64,000 nucleotides of DNA, from NCBI GenBank assembly GCA_963815195.1, contig CAWFGE010000012.1, forward strand, positions 576,001 through 640,000, in the 5' to 3' direction. The notes beneath the pieces are model-generated. The model did not search any database, was not told where the DNA came from, and was given only the letters and a program-made list of their open reading frames with translations. This DNA comes from an uncultured Planctomycetaceae bacterium (GTDB lineage Bacteria > Planctomycetota > Planctomycetia > Planctomycetales > Planctomycetaceae). A program made the translations under genes and the position numbers. Below are positions 1 to 7,137 of this stretch, piece after piece (the first letter of the stretch is position 1; every line of letters begins with the position of its first letter).

Positions 1-93
1 GCGATGCTATTTACAGGCGGCCACTGATCGTCGTCTGCATCGCGTGAATCGTACCACGACCATTCCATCCTTTTTGACTCAAGCGTGAGAACT

Positions 94-462
94 ATGAACA
101 CCACGACAGAAATCTGCCCTGAAACGACGGTCGCTGCGCGGATCGCGGGTGAGGACATCGCCTGCGGTGACTTTGTCAGCGTCCTCAACGAGGTCATCGA
201 GTTGCCTTCGTTCCTATGGAACGGCTCTGCGGTTTCGCTCACAGCGGAAGAACCCGTTCGCATCCGTTACGCGGCGAGCGACGCCGGCCAGCCTTACCAG
301 GTGATCGGCATTTGCCTGCCCTTCGTCTATGCCAAGACGCCGGGCGGGTCTGTTGCGACCATCGACACGCGCCAGCGCCAGTTGGTGCGACTCGACGAAA
401 ACTGCGCCCGCAGGGTTTGGCAAGAACTGACGAAACCGCGTTCCGAGAAGAAGCGAAAATAG
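94..462 (+). CDS. Hypothetical protein (~122 aa) directly upstream of the Y-RNA-like array and rsr
   Basis: ORF 85..462 with ATG at 94; protein-like composition; its stop is 12 nt before RNA unit 1; no recognised motif. Confidence 0.65.
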   Translation: MNTTTEICPETTVAARIAGEDIACGDFVSVLNEVIELPSFLWNGSAVSLTAEEPVRIRYAASDAGQPYQVIGICLPFVYAKTPGGSVATIDTRQRQLVRLDENCARRVWQELTKPRSEKKRK

Positions 463-474
463 ATTTTGAAAACA

Positions 475-620
475 CCCGACTGCTTGCTGGAGTCCATAAA
501 ACTGTTGTTTTCGAAAACGAAGACCGTGGGTTCGAATCCCACCAAACACTTTCCATCGAAAGTTGTTTGTGGCGGAGCGGCCAAACGCGACAGAAAACCT
601 CTGACATACTCTTCGTCGGG
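475..620 (+). ncRNA. Y RNA-like unit 1 (YrlA-type circularly permuted tRNA mimic)
   Basis: Closing stem CCCGAC(475-480)/GTCGGG(615-620); CTGT(502-505)/ACAG(590-593) stem; variable-arm hairpin 506-519; T arm GTGGG-TTCGAAT-CCCAC (526-542); loop-closed acceptor-like stem 543-569; D arm TG-GCG-GAGCGGCCAAA-CGC (570-588); lies upstream of a Ro60 gene. Confidence 0.85.
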
Positions 621-637
621 ATTTTGAAACGAAAACC

Positions 638-759
638 CACTCGACTGCCGGTGTGGAGTACATGGCAAAGGATCGAAAGATCTAGCGGGTTCAAATCCCG
701 CCCCGTCCGCTCCAAGAAAACGAACGGACGGGTTCTCTGTCCCAAAACTTCGTCGAGTG
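638..759 (+). ncRNA. Y RNA-like unit 2 (T arm plus closed acceptor stem, no D arm)
   Basis: CACTCGAC(638-645)/GTCGAGTG(752-759); GGAGT(655-659)/ACTTC(747-751); GATC-GAAA-GATC hairpin 671-682; T arm GCGGG-TTCAAAT-CCCGC (685-701); CCCGTCCG(702-709)/CGGACGGG(725-732); T run follows. Confidence 0.8.
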
Positions 760-774
760 TTTTTTTAAGAAAAC

Positions 775-832
775 GATCCGACTGCCGGTGTGGAGTCGGA
801 TCATTCCCTTCGTCGAGTTCGTGCTCGACTGC
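775..832 (+). promoter_or_regulatory. Minimal third Y-like unit or structured leader of rsr
   Basis: CGACTGCCGGTGTGGAGT (779-796) is identical to unit 2 (642-659); CTTCGTCGA at 808-816; hairpins GATCCGAC/GTCGGATC and GTCGAG/CTCGAC; ends ~10 nt before the AAGGAAAG RBS. Confidence 0.55.
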
Positions 833-852
833 ATTTAAGAAAGGAAAGAAAG

Positions 853-2463
853 ATGGCCAACAAGACTTTGTTTTCCAGCAGCAAGAATTCTCTGCCGCGG
901 ACGGATACCTATAACGAGGCCGGAGGCCAGGCTTACCAGTTTTCGCCGAAGCATGCGCTGGCGCAGATGGCGGCGACCGGCTGCTTCAATGGGGTTTTCT
1001 ACGCGAGCGCCAAGAGCCAACTGGATGAGACGCGGAAGCTGATCGACCAGGTGGATGACAACGTCTTCCTGGCGAAGCTGGCGGTTTACGCGCGTGAGCG
1101 AGCCTACATGAAGGACATGCCGGCGGCGCTGTTGGTCGTTCTGTCCAAGCGGGACACCGAACTGTTGCACCGCGTGTTCGATCGGGTGGTGGACAACGGC
1201 CGCGTGCTGCGAACCATGTTTCAGATGATCCGTTCGGGACAGTTCGGCCGCACCAGCCTGTCGTCCAGTTTGCAGCGGGCGTTCCAGCGGTGGTTGAACG
1301 AGGCGTCGGTCGGGAAGCTCTTGTCGGCTTCGATCGGAAACGATCCGAGTCTGCGGGACGTGCTGCGGATGGCTCGACCAACGCCGAAAGATAACGAACG
1401 GCGTGCGCTGTTCGGTTGGCTGACGGACAAGGAGACCGAGAAGTGGGCTCCCGCCACCCAAGCCGACCTGCCGGCGCAGGTCCAGTCGCTGATCGCGTAC
1501 CGCCAGGCGGAAACCGCCGAGATGCAGGCGCTCATCCTGGGCGATCTGTCGGTGCGTTGGGATCTCTTGGCGGATGCGGCCAAGGGTCCGCTGGTCTGGA
1601 AGGGCATCGCCCGCCAGATGGGACCGCAGGCCCTGCGGATGAACCTCAACACGCTTCTGCGTCACGAGGTTCTGAAGGATGCCGAGATGGTGGATTACGT
1701 GGCCAGCCGCCTGGCGGATGCGAATGAAATCCATCGCTCGCGGCAGTTTCCGTACCAGTTCCTGGCGGCATACCTGAACGCCTCGGCTGAGGTTCCGCAA
1801 AAGATCAAGGCCGCTTTGCATCAGGCGGCTGAGATTGCTTGCGGCAACGTGCCAGAATTGCCGGGTCCGGTCGTCATCGGTCTGGACACGTCCGGTTCGA
1901 TGTCCATGCCGGCCACGGGTTGGCGGGGCCGCGGTGCGACCAGCAAGATGCGGTGCGTCGATGTGGCGGCTTTGTTCGCCGCGGCGATTCTCCGCCGCAA
2001 CCCAGACAGCGTGATCGTTCCATTCGACACGCAAGCGTACGACGTCCGCATCGATCCGGCCGACTCGATCCTGAGCCTGTCGGAGCGGCTGGCGAAGTAC
2101 GGCGGCGGGGGAACGGACTGTTCGATTCCCCTCCGCACGGCCAACACAAAGTTCAATAGGCAAGCGTTTGCGGGCTGCGTGCTGGTCAGCGACAACGAGA
2201 GTTGGGTCGGCACGGGCCGCTACGGCTCGACCGGCGTGATGACCGAGTGGCAGACGTTCGTCAAGAACCAGACGCTCTTGGGCATCGCCGATCCAAAGCT
2301 GGTTTGCATCGACATCCAGCCCTATGGTTCGACGCAGGCTCCCGAGCGAGACAACATCCTGAACATCGGCGGCTTCAGTGACGCGGTGTTCCACGTCGTC
2401 GCCTCGTACCTCGCAGGCGACGCCGCCCGGTTCGTCGCCGAGGTGGAGTCGATCGAGCTGTAA
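853..2463 (+). CDS. rsr: Ro60/Rsr RNA-binding protein (TROVE domain plus vWA domain)
   Basis: N-terminal NEAGGx[22 protein letters not shown]; vWA MIDAS motif DTSGSM, GGGTDCS, VSDNESW, IGGFSD; ATG at 853 after purine-rich RBS. Confidence 0.93.
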
Positions 2464-2479
2464 TGGCTCTGTTGAATGG

Positions 2480-2520
2480 AAACGCCCCTGGTCTGAGCGA
2501 TCGGACCCGGGGCGTTTTTC
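2480..2520 (+). terminator. Intrinsic terminator after rsr
   Basis: AAACGCCCC...GGGGCGTTT stem with internal GGTC/GACC pairing, followed by a T run. Confidence 0.75.
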
Positions 2521-2592
2521 GTTCTGACAAGGAGTAAAAGGCCTTTTTTGACGGCCCTGGCGATTATTTCCAAAAATATTTCAGATATATTA

Positions 2593-2619
2593 TTGACATG
2601 ACAATAGATTATATGTCAA
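2593..2619. promoter_or_regulatory. Candidate promoter/operator of the MarR gene
   Basis: TTGACAT-N13-ATGTCAA inverted repeat including a consensus -35 TTGACA in an AT-rich tract. Confidence 0.5.
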
Positions 2620-2648
2620 GTTATTGCGAAGGAGGTGACTCAGAACCC

Positions 2649-3131
2649 ATGGCGCGCAGCAGACTTCAAGATGAGCTGAAAAAGAAACGATCGTTCGATT
2701 CGCTGGAGCAGCCGGCGATTTTGAACATCCTGCGGACGAGCGATCAGTTTCAGAATCGTTTCGGGCGATTGTTTCGGGAATACGGTCTGACCTCATCCCA
2801 GTACAACGTGCTGCGAATCCTCCGGGGCGAAGGCCGGCCGATGCCTTGCCTGGAAATTGCCGAGCGGATGATACAAGTGGTTCCGGCCATGACGGGGCTC
2901 TTGGATCGGTTGGAGAAGCAGGGACTCGTGTCGCGGGAACGCTGCACGGAAGACCGCCGCGTGGTTTACGTGGACCTGACAAAGAAGGCGAAGGAATTGC
3001 TCAAGGAGATGGACGCTCCCGTGAGCGAACTCCACCACGAACTTGTCGGCCATCTCACGCGGGCGGAACTGAAAGAACTCAGCCGCCTGTTGGAAAAGGC
3101 GCGAACGGCTCTTGATGAAAGCCAAGGTTGA
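2649..3131 (+). CDS. MarR-family transcriptional regulator
   Basis: GLTSSQYNVLRIL, LLDRLEKQGLVSR, DRRVVYVDLT wHTH signature; GGAGG RBS at 2631. Confidence 0.92.
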   Translation: MARSRLQDELKKKRSFDSLEQPAILNILRTSDQFQNRFGRLFREYGLTSSQYNVLRILRGEGRPMPCLEIAERMIQVVPAMTGLLDRLEKQGLVSRERCTEDRRVVYVDLTKKAKELLKEMDAPVSELHHELVGHLTRAELKELSRLLEKARTALDESQG

Positions 3132-3144
3132 TCTTTTTTTGGCC

Positions 3145-3163
3145 GTTTACATTATATGTAAAC
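3145..3163. promoter_or_regulatory. Palindromic operator upstream of the SDR gene (probable MarR site)
   Basis: Perfect GTTTACAT-TAT-ATGTAAAC; resembles TAGATTATATGTCAA upstream of the MarR gene. Confidence 0.6.
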
Positions 3164-3199
3164 TGACTATATAAAATCTAATTAAAGAAAGGCGAAACG

Positions 3200-3955
3200 A
3201 TGAGCTTAAGGGGAAAAGTGGCTTTGGTGACAGGCGGAACGTCCGGCATTGGCAAGGAAACGGCACTTGAGCTTGCAAAGGCGGGGGCAAAGGTTGTCCT
3301 GGCGGGCCGCCGGGCGGAGGAGGGGAATGCCGTGGCGGCCGAGATCGCCTCGGCGGGCGGGGAGGCGATTTTCGTCGAAACCGACGTGACGAAAGAGGAT
3401 CAGGTCCGGCGCCTGGTGGAGGAAGCCGTCCGGCATTTTGGCCGTTTGGACATTGCCTTCAACAATGCCGGGGTCGAACAGACCGGACCGATCGCGGAGT
3501 TTACCGAACAGGACTACCGCAGGGTGTTTGACATCAACGTCCTCGGCGTGTTCCTCAGCTTGAAATACGAGATTCCCGCCATGCTCCAAACCGGGGGCGG
3601 CTCGATCATCAATACGTCGAGCATCCTCGGCCGCGTCGCCGTCCCGGGGGCCGGCATCTACAACGCCTCGAAGCACGCCGTGGAAGGCATCACCAAGACG
3701 GCCGCCCTCGAACTGGCGGGGCAAGGCATTCGGGTCAATGCCGTCGCTCCCGGTGCCGTCGCCACGGATATGATCGATCGTTTCGCCGGTGAAGAGGGCA
3801 GCGAACATCGGGAACAGCTCGCTTCGCAGCATCCGATGGGACGGCTCGGACATTCCCGGGAAATCGCCGCGGCCGTGCTCTATTTGGCGTCGGATGCCGC
3901 GTCGTTCACGACGGGGATGTCGCTGCCCGTCGATGGCGGGTACCTGGCGAAATAA
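3200..3955 (+). CDS. Short-chain dehydrogenase/reductase
   Basis: TGGTSGIG, NNAG, YNASK (YxxxK), VDGG. Confidence 0.95.
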   Translation: MSLRGKVALVTGGTSGIGKETALELAKAGAKVVLAGRRAEEGNAVAAEIASAGGEAIFVETDVTKEDQVRRLVEEAVRHFGRLDIAFNNAGVEQTGPIAEFTEQDYRRVFDINVLGVFLSLKYEIPAMLQTGGGSIINTSSILGRVAVPGAGIYNASKHAVEGITKTAALELAGQGIRVNAVAPGAVATDMIDRFAGEEGSEHREQLASQHPMGRLGHSREIAAAVLYLASDAASFTTGMSLPVDGGYLAK

Positions 3956-3988
3956 TCACACACAACAAACCGATTTCGAGGTGATGAC

Positions 3989-4687
3989 ATGATTCAAGTT
4001 CGCAAAGCGCACGAGCGCGGCCATGCCGACCACGGCTGGCTCGAGACGTACCACACATTTTCATTTTCAACCTACCACGACCCGAACCACATGCGGTTTC
4101 GGTCGCTACGGGTGATGAACGAGGACTTTGTCGCCCCGGGGCAAGGCTTCGGGACGCATCCCCATCATGACATGGAGATCGTCACGTACGTGCTCGAAGG
4201 GGCGCTCGAACACAAGGACTCGATGGGCCACGGCGAAGTCCTGCGGCCCGGAGAGTTTCAGCGAATGTCCGCGGGAACCGGAATCACGCACAGCGAATTC
4301 AACCCTTCCCCCACCGAGCCGGTTCATCTCTACCAGATTTGGCTGTTTCCCGAACGCAAAGGGATCGAGCCCAGTTACGAGCAGAAGCGATTTCCCGAGG
4401 AACAGCGGCACAATCGGCTGCAGCTGGTGGCTTCTCGGGAGGGAGTTGACGGCTCATTGCTCATCCACCAGGATGCCCGCATCTATTTGTCGAGCCTTGA
4501 TGAAGGCCGGGCCGTTTCCCACGAACTTTCGCCGGGCCGGCACGCGTGGCTGCAAGTGCTCCGAGGCGATGTTTCCCTCAATGGCCTCGAACTTATGACA
4601 GGCGACGCCGCCGGCGTCAGCGGCGAAAGCACGCTGGAGATCCTGGCGAACCGGCCGGCCGAGATCATGCTCTTCGATCTGAATTAG
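3989..4687 (+). CDS. Pirin-family protein (YhhW/quercetin 2,3-dioxygenase-like)
   Basis: HGWL..HTFSF, GFGTHPHHDMEI, MSAGTGITHSE, QIW. Confidence 0.93.
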   Translation: MIQVRKAHERGHADHGWLETYHTFSFSTYHDPNHMRFRSLRVMNEDFVAPGQGFGTHPHHDMEIVTYVLEGALEHKDSMGHGEVLRPGEFQRMSAGTGITHSEFNPSPTEPVHLYQIWLFPERKGIEPSYEQKRFPEEQRHNRLQLVASREGVDGSLLIHQDARIYLSSLDEGRAVSHELSPGRHAWLQVLRGDVSLNGLELMTGDAAGVSGESTLEILANRPAEIMLFDLN

Positions 4688-4922
4688 ACCCGGGTCTTGC
4701 GGTTTTTCGTGTGCATGATTCTATTCCTTCTGCACAATCTCCGAAGGGGAGGTAAGATCCGTGGTTGATCATCACACAAAAAGATCATCAGCGTCCGCCC
4801 CCGATTCGCCGGAAGACCCCCTTTTCTCATGTTGTCACCTATCCAGGGGATCGCTATGATGCGAAACGGGGACGGAATCTGTTTCGATCAACGGCAGTCG
4901 TAAAGGAGGCACGTCAGTTCCT

Positions 4923-5405
4923 ATGCGAATCGGATTGGGACACGATGTGCACCGGCTGGTCGAGGGCCGCACGCTGGTTTTGGGCGGCGTGGCGATTGAA
5001 TACCACCTGGGGCCCGACGGACACAGCGATGGCGATGTGCTTTTGCATGCCCTGACCGATGCCGTGTTGGGAGCCGCCGGCCTGGGCGACATCGGCACGT
5101 GGTTCCCGGACACCGACCCGAAGTGGAAAGATGCCGATTCCGCGCAGTTTCTCGAAGCCGCGGTCGCGCTGGTTCGCGAACGGGGCTGGAGAATTGGCAA
5201 TGTCGATTGCACAATTTTCGCCGAACAGCCGAAACTGAAAGAAGATAAACCCAGAATTCGCGGCCGGGTGGCGGAGATTCTGGGCATAAGCGCGGACGCG
5301 GTGAACATCAAAGCCAAGACCGGCGAGAAGGTCGGCCCCATCGGCCGCGGAGAAGCCATCGCCGCCGACGCCGTGGTTTTGTTGTTGCCTATGACATCAG
5401 AGTGA
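4923..5405 (+). CDS. ispF: 2-C-methyl-D-erythritol 2,4-cyclodiphosphate synthase
   Basis: MRIGLGHDVH, GHSDGDVLLHA, GDIG, NIKAKTGEK. Confidence 0.96.
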   Translation: MRIGLGHDVHRLVEGRTLVLGGVAIEYHLGPDGHSDGDVLLHALTDAVLGAAGLGDIGTWFPDTDPKWKDADSAQFLEAAVALVRERGWRIGNVDCTIFAEQPKLKEDKPRIRGRVAEILGISADAVNIKAKTGEKVGPIGRGEAIAADAVVLLLPMTSE

Positions 5406-5410
5406 TTCGA

Positions 5411-5528
5411 AAGTCGCCGATCGCTCCGCGATCGTAGCGCGGACGTGAGTAAAGGTGCAATTTCAATAGTTGATTCGATAGGGTATCGAACTGTCGAAAC
5501 GCTACGTTCGCGGAGCGAACGGCGACTT
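5411..5528. repeat. REP-like inverted repeat
   Basis: AAGTCGCCGATCGCTCCGCGATCGTAGCG (5411-5439) and near-perfect complement at 5500-5528 (2 mismatches). Confidence 0.8.
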
Positions 5529-5579
5529 ACCTTGCCGCAGACAAAACCATCACCAACACGAGACGGATTTCTCACCACA

Positions 5580-7137
5580 ATGACACTTCGCGTTTACAAC
5601 ACGTTGACTCGCCAGAAGGAAGATTTTCAGACCGTCCAGCCGGGCAAGGTTACGATGTATCTGTGCGGGCCGACGGTGTATAAGCCCGCCCACATCGGGC
5701 ATCTGGTGGGGCCGGTGATTTTCGATACGATCAAACGTTATCTCACCTACAACGGCTATCAGGTGACGTGGGTCATCAACATCACCGATGTGGACGATAA
5801 ACTCATTGCCGGGGCGAAAAAAAACGGCACCACCGTGGAAGCCCTCGCCAAGCAAATGACCGACGACTACTTCGACAACCTGGGGACAATGGGCGTCGAC
5901 ACCGTCGATCATTTCCCCTACGCCACGGCGCACATCGGCGACATGCTGGAGATGATTGGCTCGTTAGTCGAACAGGGCTATGCCTACCCGCTCGATGGCG
6001 ACGTGTATTTTGAAGTCTCCAAGGATGAGGACTACGGCAAGCTCAGCCGGCGGAACATCGAGGAAATGCTCGCCGGCACGCGGGCCGAGACCAACGAGAA
6101 AAAACGCAATCCCGCCGACTTCGCCCTCTGGAAAAAATCGAAGCCCGGCGAACCGGCGTGGAACAGCCCCTGGGGACCGGGCCGGCCCGGTTGGCATATC
6201 GAATGCTCCGCCATGAGCCAAAAACTCCTGGGCGAATCCATCGACATTCACGGCGGCGGGTTGGATTTGATGTTCCCCCACCACGAGAACGAACTTGCCC
6301 AGTCCGAATGCTGCTCCGGCAAGCCCTTCGCCCGGTATTGGATGCACAACGGCCTGATGCAAGCCGGCAGCCAATCCGGAAAACTCGGCGGCCAGCACAG
6401 CCGCGCAGGCGATAAGATTCCCGACCAGGCCGCGCAAGAAGCGGGCAAGCTCGCCGGTTCCGCGGGGGCGGAGTCGGTCAAGACGGCGGTGTTCGCGAAA
6501 CATCACCCCGAAACCGTGCGGTTCTTTTTGCTCTCGACCCATTACCGCAGCCCGATCGACTTCAGCGATGAAAACATCGCAGGCACCGGCAAGAGCCTCG
6601 AAGGGTTTTACCGGCTGTTTGGAACTTTCGGACGCATCACCGGACAGGTTTTTTATGCCCTCAAAGCTCCAGAGGTTCGAAGCGATTCGAAACCGATCGC
6701 GGGGAACGATGCGGAGTTCGCGGAGGAGATGAACCATCTCCACGCCCGGTTTTTGGAAGCGATGGATGACGACTTCAACACCGGCGGGGCCGTGGGCAAT
6801 TTGTTCGAGATGCGAAAGGCCTTAAACGGTTACATCGCCCGGCACAACCTGGAAACGGGCAAAACCCAGCCGGCCGACGTGGAAACGCTGACGGCCGGGA
6901 TGACGATGCTCAAGGAACTGGCGAACCTGTTGGGCGTGTTCCGCAAACCGATCGAGAAATCGGCCGGCGGGGACGATGAGTTCGTGGGCGGCTTGATGCA
7001 GCTCATCATCCGCCTCAGGGCGGATGCGCAAAACCAAGAACTGGGACATGGCCGACAAAATCCGCGACGGCCTCGCCGCCCTCAAAGTCACCTTGGAAGA
7101 CCGCCCCGAAGAAACGGTTTGGCGGCGAGACGGATAG
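5580..7137 (+). CDS. cysS: Cysteine--tRNA ligase (frameshift near 7027, probably a sequence error)
   Basis: [54 protein letters not shown]-terminus [15 protein letters not shown]...WRRDG continues in another frame to TAG 7137. Confidence 0.95.

Follow-up and report, generated by a model that had tools for sequence, protein, structure and literature searches.

An rsr-linked tandem array of Y-RNA-like units with differing tRNA- and rRNA-like cargo in a planctomycete

The window, meaning the whole 64,000-nucleotide stretch that was analyzed (contig C12 of genome G000, positions 576001 to 640000), carries near its left end a gene for Rsr, the ortholog of Ro60, with small-RNA units directly ahead of it (Table 1). 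The identification of rsr in the first-pass annotation was confirmed: its product contains TROVE (PF05731, 44.3 bits) and vWA_Ro60 (PF25045, 51.4 bits) domains and matches Deinococcus radiodurans Rsr (PDB 2nvo, E = 1.1e-19) over nearly its full length. The units in the window are on the rsr strand and end 51 to 233 nt ahead of its start. This region of the window is a genuine array of Y-like RNAs. An array of three units had been described; these are present, but four further units lie to the left of position 1, so that seven tandem units precede rsr, the last three inside the window. The more general proposal, that Y-RNA-like units with a common handle and differing cargo adjoin rsr, was supported.

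Table 1. Features of the rsr locus and of the sequence to its left (negative numbers are C12 positions minus 576000)
Feature	Position	Strand	Remarks
dinB-like ORF	left of window, ahead of ECF-like site		identified by eye
ECF-like site, GAACC-N16-GTCT	about -2826..-2800
23 same-strand tRNA genes	-2791..-578 (C12:573209-575422)
Short unit with anticodon-like loop	-576..-504		identified by eye
rRNA-like unit	-495..-320
Unit with tRNA arms in natural order	-311..-198
YrlA-type unit	-190..-53		best YrlA match of the genome, 31.9 bits (cut-off 69)
122-aa ORF of no known family	94..462	+	inserted in the array
Unit 1	475..620	+	handle P1 475-480/615-620, P2 488-492/599-603; predicted Leu-like class-II tRNA mimic
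Unit 2	638..759	+	handle P1 638-645/752-759, P2 655-658/735-738; candidate Ser-like tRNA mimic
Unit 3	775..802	+	putative handle remnant, 775-782 pairing with 795-802
Separate inside-out hairpin	808..831 (stem 812-817/824-829)	+	ahead of the rsr ribosome-binding site; lineage-specific
rsr (Ro60 ortholog, 536 aa)	853..2463	+	TROVE and vWA domains
Terminator-like hairpin with U-run	2480..2521	+	after rsr; -28 kcal/mol

The tRNA array runs directly into the Y-like units and then rsr. At a relaxed threshold, 24 tRNA calls were obtained left of the window, one of them on the opposite strand, and ARAGORN found no tRNA genes in the window itself. Short tRNA-Leu genes (74 to 78 nt) in the array lack the long variable arm, and the housekeeping tRNA-Leu genes differ from them. 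A sigma-70 promoter was sought on the plus strand and none was found. Of 80 related loci, 11 have the 122-aa ORF within the array, always on the rsr strand and 0.5 to 1.1 kb before rsr; it had no Pfam match (87 sequences searched), and 511 cluster representatives were found at E ≤ 0.001, the Atlas returning unnamed clusters only. Beyond the rsr terminator (window positions 2649 to 4687) lie ordinary genes for a MarR regulator, a short-chain dehydrogenase, and a pirin, which are outside the system. A second rsr on contig C10 of the same genome (about 430100 to 431400, minus strand) is frameshifted and truncated, is without Y-like units upstream, and by eye is joined to a DUF1559-like reading frame.

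For comparison, the best 80 of 149 confirmed relatives of the window's rsr, all planctomycete, were used together with G000. Using a fuzzy unit finder that demanded at least six pairs in the outer stem, 305 units were identified across these 81 loci; 303 lie upstream of rsr on its strand, and the remaining two are reverse-strand matches. The units therefore precede other rsr genes as well, the conservation proposed as a check in the first-pass annotation. Applied genome-wide the finder is loose, with 42 matches over both strands of G000, and the strict 5′ motif occurs three times in the 8.87-Mb genome, every time inside this array. Among the 56 loci with at least 2.5 kb of upstream sequence, the number of units ranged from 0 to 11, most commonly three or four. 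The spacers have a median length of 11 nt and an A+T content of 65% (n = 154), bearing out the A/T-rich spacers noted ahead of the units. The order of unit types is broadly kept across loci: short, rRNA-like, at least one YrlA, T arm without D, last unit, rsr. At least five same-strand tRNAs were present in 23 of 55 loci, and the ECF-like site was found in 6 of 49 loci versus 0 of 574 background bins, many arrays beginning past the 3-kb flank. Cultured carriers include Stieleria and Aeoliella among the loci and Nostoc by protein cluster. The YrlA units of L073 and L079, and loci L023, L049, and L051, contain short repeat-like insertions in acceptor-stem or cargo loops, which mostly leave the handle unbroken.

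The consensus of the handle, derived from 294 distinct units, is NNN-CGAC-UGC(C)-N4-6-GGAG-UACAU..cargo..CUCU-N-CYUC-GUCG-NNN, in which ACUG, GGA, U.CAU, and CYUCGU are near invariant. Its four-mer is CGAC in 191, CAAC in 62, and UGAC in 29 of these units, with the 3′ side changing to match, so that CGAC/GUCG switches jointly to CAAC/GUUG. The 5′ motifs reported at 477, 642, and 779 and the covarying outer stems of the window units are present in the sequence. The accompanying 3′ motif, CTTCGTCG, is also found at 611, 748, and 808, but the copy at 808 is outside unit 3, in a separate hairpin. Within a unit, 3.55 of the outer four pairs are matched, versus 1.84 between units of one locus, a difference that arises partly by construction; outer pairs that differ between neighbors would keep each unit folding on itself.

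Inside the outer stem, GGAG pairs with a conserved CUCU about 12 to 17 nt ahead of CUUC. This second stem, for which the finder did not select, has 6.6 paired bases versus 4.1 with shuffled partners (maximum 4.3, 200 shuffles), and RNAalifold of unit 2 and 19 orthologs gave both stems around a two-sided internal loop, with double changes in 14 of 32 pairs. When units 1 and 2 are folded as single sequences, this stem is outside the minimum-energy structure. The one-sided loop reported earlier was thus a mis-pairing, as the GGAG/CUCU stem encloses a loop with two sides. A reading on the minus strand, where GACGAAG fits GNCGAAG, was ruled out, since T loops, tRNAs, and rsr are on the plus strand and G-U pairs are workable on that strand only (20 of 24 at one P2 position). 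The handle is likely bound by Ro60/Rsr.

Unit 1 is a predicted YrlA-type RNA, a Leu-like class-II tRNA mimic opened at the anticodon loop. Its mimic comprises an anticodon stem (502-506/589-593), a variable hairpin (507-524), a T arm (526-542), a closed acceptor stem (543-569), and a D arm (572-588), in the order T-AS-D, and the D arm resembles that of a housekeeping tRNA-Leu of the same genome. Unit 2 lacks an anticodon arm and a D stem; GG after UACAU is followed by a variable hairpin (670-683), a T arm (685-701), and an acceptor stem (702-709/725-732). Units of this class have GG at the start of the cargo in 41 of 43 cases, and in the subtype with a variable hairpin the acceptor strand ends in UCC in 17 of 20 and is then followed by G in 20 of 20, as in the tRNA-Ser of the genome, where five of the seven tRNAs beginning with GGA are Ser. 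Unit 2 may thus be a Ser-like tRNA body whose opening lies in the D arm. Unit 1 and unit 2 both have better folds than shuffled sequences (z = -2.2 and -5.0, respectively).

Relative to loci L004 and L013, unit 3 is short of about 69 nt of cargo. It is, as read from this comparison, the remnant of an internal deletion of about that length, and has likely lost cargo function in this genome. Its 3′ arm is formed by 795-802 and not, as first described, by the motif at 808. The intact form, a cargo type unlike the others, is seen in L004 (2854-2950), L013, L030, and L035. The hairpin at 808-831 also occurs in L004, where a U-run follows. An inside-out Rsr operator as a general feature was considered and rejected, the 12 matches in 75 loci being mostly weak pairings between neighboring units. 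With unit 3 a deletion remnant and the order of cargo types conserved across loci, the graded cargo series originally seen in the three units does not hold; the apparent grading is an accident of the window start cutting the array and of the one deletion in unit 3. The last unit before rsr often has a three-way junction and a hairpin with a GGGAG loop (L003:2875-2981, L017:2880-2981, L064:2856-2977, and 15 more); the cargo of these begins with CC in 18 of 18, which might pair with the GGGAG loop. Neither this cargo nor the short types had a significant match to the host 23S, 16S, or 5S rRNA. Taken by themselves, the three window units are nearer to the ordinary: one YrlA-type RNA, one T-arm RNA, and one remnant.

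Some of the sister units appear to carry anticodon loops. Among 80 distinct short cargoes that lack a T arm, drawn from 161 loci, 36 have a 4- to 6-bp stem closing a 7-nt YU-NNN-R-N loop (300 shuffles: mean 0.57, maximum 3), counts that are inflated because the sequences are related and not independent. The anticodons are GUU (10), GUG (6), GCU (5), GCA (4), GUA (4), GUC (2), and one each of GAA, AUU, UUG, UGC, and CGA, giving G34 in 32 of 36; near-identical units swap the anticodon and mostly keep G34. The same test on cargoes containing a T arm was not significant (7 of 183 versus 3.9 in shuffles, maximum 10). A unit of this type is present in 31 of 55 loci, in 21 of them alongside the rRNA-like cargo, and the copy in G000 has a Tyr-type loop on a weak stem.

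The cargo of the rRNA-like sister unit is, from sequence and topology, a putative circularly permuted miniature of the 23S helices that we take to be numbers 67 to 71. It is identical to the host 23S at 21 of 21 nt over H69-H70 (E = 3e-4), and profiles of both variants of the cargo had this same 23S site as their best hit outside the array in 8.9 Mb (E = 0.042 and 0.0038). The proposed structure is 95.2% paired in 24 units, with double changes in 23 of 44 pairs; none of 500 shuffles was as good and slid controls were 25 to 45% paired, although related sequences can beat such shuffles. RNAalifold gave the same topology, which matches the Rfam LSU consensus for the region. A weight matrix of the 3′ block of the mimic ranked first the 23S stretch just 5′ of the anchor (three overlapping windows), supporting circular permutation; the H67-5′/H68-5′ block was not top-ranked against 23S by sequence, and that part of the assignment rests on topology. 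Long colinear similarity to 23S was absent, with identity limited to the 21 nt and the order permuted, and the cargo is neither a 23S gene nor a fragment of one. In the commonest planctomycete form the handle takes the place of the H69 loop; a second form retains this loop, which the variant in G000 lacks. Of 55 rsr loci having 2.5 kb or more of upstream sequence, 33 contain the rRNA-like cargo.

Using a mimic pattern built to exclude true 23S, at least 120 metagenome stretches were obtained, 80 of which were analyzed. No 23S-like hit over 60 nt was found in these 80 loci, and L081 had no LSU match. A same-strand Ro-family gene was present in 18 of the 20 mimic loci with at least 2 kb on both sides, cyanobacterial ones included. 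Eight of the 20 had supplied proteins to the Ro profile and were Pfam positive on their own; 10 of the other 12 match the profile, and in five of these the match is weak (E = 1e-8 to 1e-9), the protein being a divergent vWA protein of 477 to 481 aa. By regular expression, the handles of the 80 loci were of planctomycete type in 42, GNCGAA type in 20, CGAAUG type in 2, and other in 16. Handle and cargo are therefore separable, as the rRNA-like cargo is found with no fewer than three kinds of handle and next to more than one Ro subfamily. In cyanobacterial carriers (Nostoc, Aphanothece, and Cyanosarcina, by protein names), cargo of the same kinds sits on a tandem handle peculiar to them. Arrays built on a different tandem handle were seen in cyanobacteria at L109 (2980-5480), L095, L107, L151, and L166, most of them ahead of the divergent 477- to 481-aa vWA protein, which is weakly similar to Ro and possibly represents an unrecognized Ro subfamily that has Y RNAs of its own. 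An RNA ligase, RtcB or another, was encoded near 4 of 24 metagenome loci chosen for a listing of their ORFs (56 of the 105 scanned); at L105 (1699-3888), an intein-bearing RtcB directly follows an rRNA-mimic unit on a Salmonella-type handle. Viral contigs gave no matches to the mimic pattern, and a plasmid blastn search with one mimic gave only 30- to 32-nt matches (best 25 of 626), likely mostly real rRNA operons.

With moderate confidence we favor the reading that the units are cut from a precursor and bound by Rsr to serve as adaptors, each cargo capturing a protein that recognizes tRNA or rRNA. One transcript, likely stress induced, would run from the ECF-like promoter through the tRNAs and units into rsr, and the A/U-rich spacers of roughly 11 nt would be cut, as for YrlA and YrlB of Mycobacterium smegmatis and Yrn2-tRNA-Yrn1 of D. 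radiodurans. Rsr would bind CGAC-UGC/CUUC-GUCG as it does the YrlA module, and the cargoes, whether tRNA elbow, Ser/Leu class-II body, G34 anticodon loop, or 23S H67-71 junction, would each capture their usual reader, which might be a nuclease, ligase, or modifying enzyme, and hold it at the Rsr ring in the way that Yrn1 holds PNPase. In favor of this reading are the position of the units ahead of rsr, the conserved and covarying handle with its second stem, the matched outer pairs within units, the A/T-rich spacers, the separability of handle and cargo, and the RNA ligases near some metagenome loci; precedents are given in PMC4201824, 10.1101/312249, and PMC8421152. Against this reading, the comparative folds of units 1 and 2 lie 7 to 11 kcal/mol above the minimum free energy (unit 1, -34 versus -45 kcal/mol); the GNCGAA motif that has been proposed as the Rsr recognition element occurs in none of the three window units (CCCGAC, CTCGAC, TCCGAC) and in only 10 of 294 distinct family units; the ECF-like site was confined to 6 of 49 loci; and the distribution is patchy, the mimic pattern being found in 3 of 401 genomes of the phylum. 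A covariance model, R1, applied to 151 phylum genomes with 18 candidates scored in each, found the mimic in G000 only. In D. radiodurans, deletion of the T arm of Yrn1 left complex assembly unchanged, according to an unpublished note in PMC4201824, which also counts against adaptors. A wider reading, offered tentatively, is that bacterial Y RNAs form a modular display in which a Ro-binding handle, exchangeable between Ro subfamilies, would present a panel of translation-RNA targets that, bound to Rsr, serves as broad bait and defense against ribotoxins. Such a panel would consist of anticodon loops with G34, tRNA bodies with any of four opening points, and the H67-71 junction from the subunit interface of 23S with either of two; spare tRNAs and RNA ligases would be encoded alongside it, in planctomycetes and cyanobacteria as well as in other phyla.

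The anticodon loops also bear on a rival in which the units are Rsr-stabilized decoys or competitive inhibitors of ribotoxins, absorbing anticodon and rRNA nucleases while spare tRNAs replace those that are cut. GUN is found in 22 of the 36 loop mimics (Asn 10, His 6, Tyr 4, Asp 2), and the arrays are linked to tRNA arrays and RNA ligases. GUN is also the queuosine/TGT set, however, another 10 loops have G34 but correspond to Ser, Cys, or Phe, and the counts are inflated by related sequences. Furthermore, the mimic lacks the segment between H70 and H71, where MazF-mt toxins cut, and the variant in G000 lacks the H69 loop. In the literature, GUN is the target set of colicin E5 (PMC6277466) and competitive inhibition has been suggested for YrlA, but an induced nuclease did not cleave Salmonella YrlA (both PMC7790460). 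Decoys are, in our view, a plausible but unlikely explanation. Less probable still is docking, in which the cargoes would bring Rsr and an exonuclease to ribosomal subunits, so that damaged ribosomes are turned over or kept from associating; anticodon loops and the H69-71 face would bind the 30S subunit, and tRNA elbows the 50S. All of the cargoes identified are surfaces that contact the ribosome, the identity to host 23S over H69-H70 is complete, and EF-Tu and L7/L12 genes adjoin two loci; against docking, the commonest planctomycete form has the handle where the H69 loop would be, a handle-bound ring of 60 kDa may collide with the ribosome, and D. radiodurans Rsr joins degrading subunits without Yrn1 (PMC4201824).

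Two further rivals are weaker. It is very unlikely that the array is an unprocessed, cis-acting rsr leader made up of successive Rsr operators, the 808-831 hairpin serving as an attenuator. The last unit in planctomycetes typically ends about 25 to 35 nt ahead of the rsr start, and the hairpin bears both handle motifs inside out, but this hairpin is clear only in G000 and L004, several metagenome loci (L089, L105, L123, L146, L153, and L163) have the same cargo on the downstream side of their Ro gene, and a cis role leaves conserved, diverse cargo unexplained. That the units are DNA-level repeats or tRNA/rRNA gene debris devoid of RNA function, to which the visibly decayed unit 3, the patchy distribution, and the frameshifted second rsr without an array would be congenial, is scarcely credible given the compensatory changes in handle and cargo, G-U pairs workable on the plus strand only, the conserved type order, and spread beyond one phylum.

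The novelty appears to lie in the range of cargo, which would include anticodon stem-loops and a miniature of a 23S junction; because the cargo is modular, the system as a whole differs from known Y RNAs. No description of anticodon-loop or rRNA-mimic Y-RNA cargo was found in the literature searched, and the claim to novelty with respect to print is provisional. Which effector the tRNA-like domain of bacterial Y RNAs engages is described as an open question in 10.1101/312249. A constant handle with several natural cargoes is a ready-made controlled experiment, in which differences in cargo only should name effectors, and with cargoes of the rRNA-junction and anticodon-loop types, Y RNAs would no longer be mimics of tRNA alone but of the translation apparatus as a whole.

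Among known systems, ribosomal-protein mRNA leaders mimic rRNA as cis-acting operators for one r-protein. The units resemble these in that a part of rRNA to which protein binds is imitated by a small RNA, and differ in presenting a permuted multi-helix junction on a Y-RNA handle that is likely trans-acting. With the L-arrays (Anabaena trn operon, PMC8421152) the locus shares spare tRNA genes in tandem, 23 of them here, and a patchy distribution; L-arrays are reported for Planctomycetes, and rtcB is co-regulated in Anabaena. The available portion of that paper contains neither "TROVE" nor "Y RNA," in contrast to the present locus, where the tRNA array continues into Y-like units and rsr. Several Y RNAs per locus are a likeness to YrlB (Salmonella, M. 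smegmatis) and to D. radiodurans Yrn1/Yrn2 and RNAs a, b, and d, some of which have only a T arm and which derive from polycistronic precursors, one including a tRNA; polycistronic Y RNAs are described in PMC4201824. Unlike in these, the cargo types here recur in a fixed order across species, and the metazoan/Yrn1-type bulged helix (GGUCCGA with a single bulged C) is absent, an uninterrupted P1 leading into the two-sided loop, with no Rfam match of that type. Cargo of rRNA-like or anticodon-loop type, or arrays with a shared handle, are not described in the portion of PMC4201824 available.

A further close relative is YrlA (Salmonella Typhimurium, Pseudomonas fulva, M. smegmatis; RF02553; Chen et al. 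2014, PMC4201824; Wang et al., 10.1101/312249), for which Table S1 of Chen et al. lists one to three predicted copies in each of eight planctomycetes. Comparison with the Rfam model, the check suggested in the first-pass annotation, gave no match at E ≤ 10 in window positions 1 to 6000, and the best scores elsewhere (the 31.9 bits of Table 1 in this genome, 40.5 in locus L045) fall below the gathering score of 69 bits. The window units nevertheless appear YrlA-like, yet depart from the formal definition in two respects. The YrlA order of T arm, closed acceptor stem, and D arm is found in unit 1 but not in units 2 and 3. In the Salmonella and P. fulva rows of supplementary text 2 of PMC4201824, the module reads CGAAUGCC..UACAU..CUUGUCG/CUCGUCG, by eye the same as the handle here with A in place of C after CGA. 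Because of this close similarity the handle is not the distinct class that had been suggested. Shared features are the position less than 400 nt from rsr on the same strand, a long closing stem, the UGCC and UACAU elements, and, in unit 1, the long variable arm with T-AS-D order. The units differ from YrlA in having CGAC for GNCGAA, with a C-G pair, and in scoring below the Rfam cut-off; in the absence of a D stem from unit 2; in unit-specific outer stems and up to 11 units per locus; and in sister units with anticodon loops or an rRNA junction.
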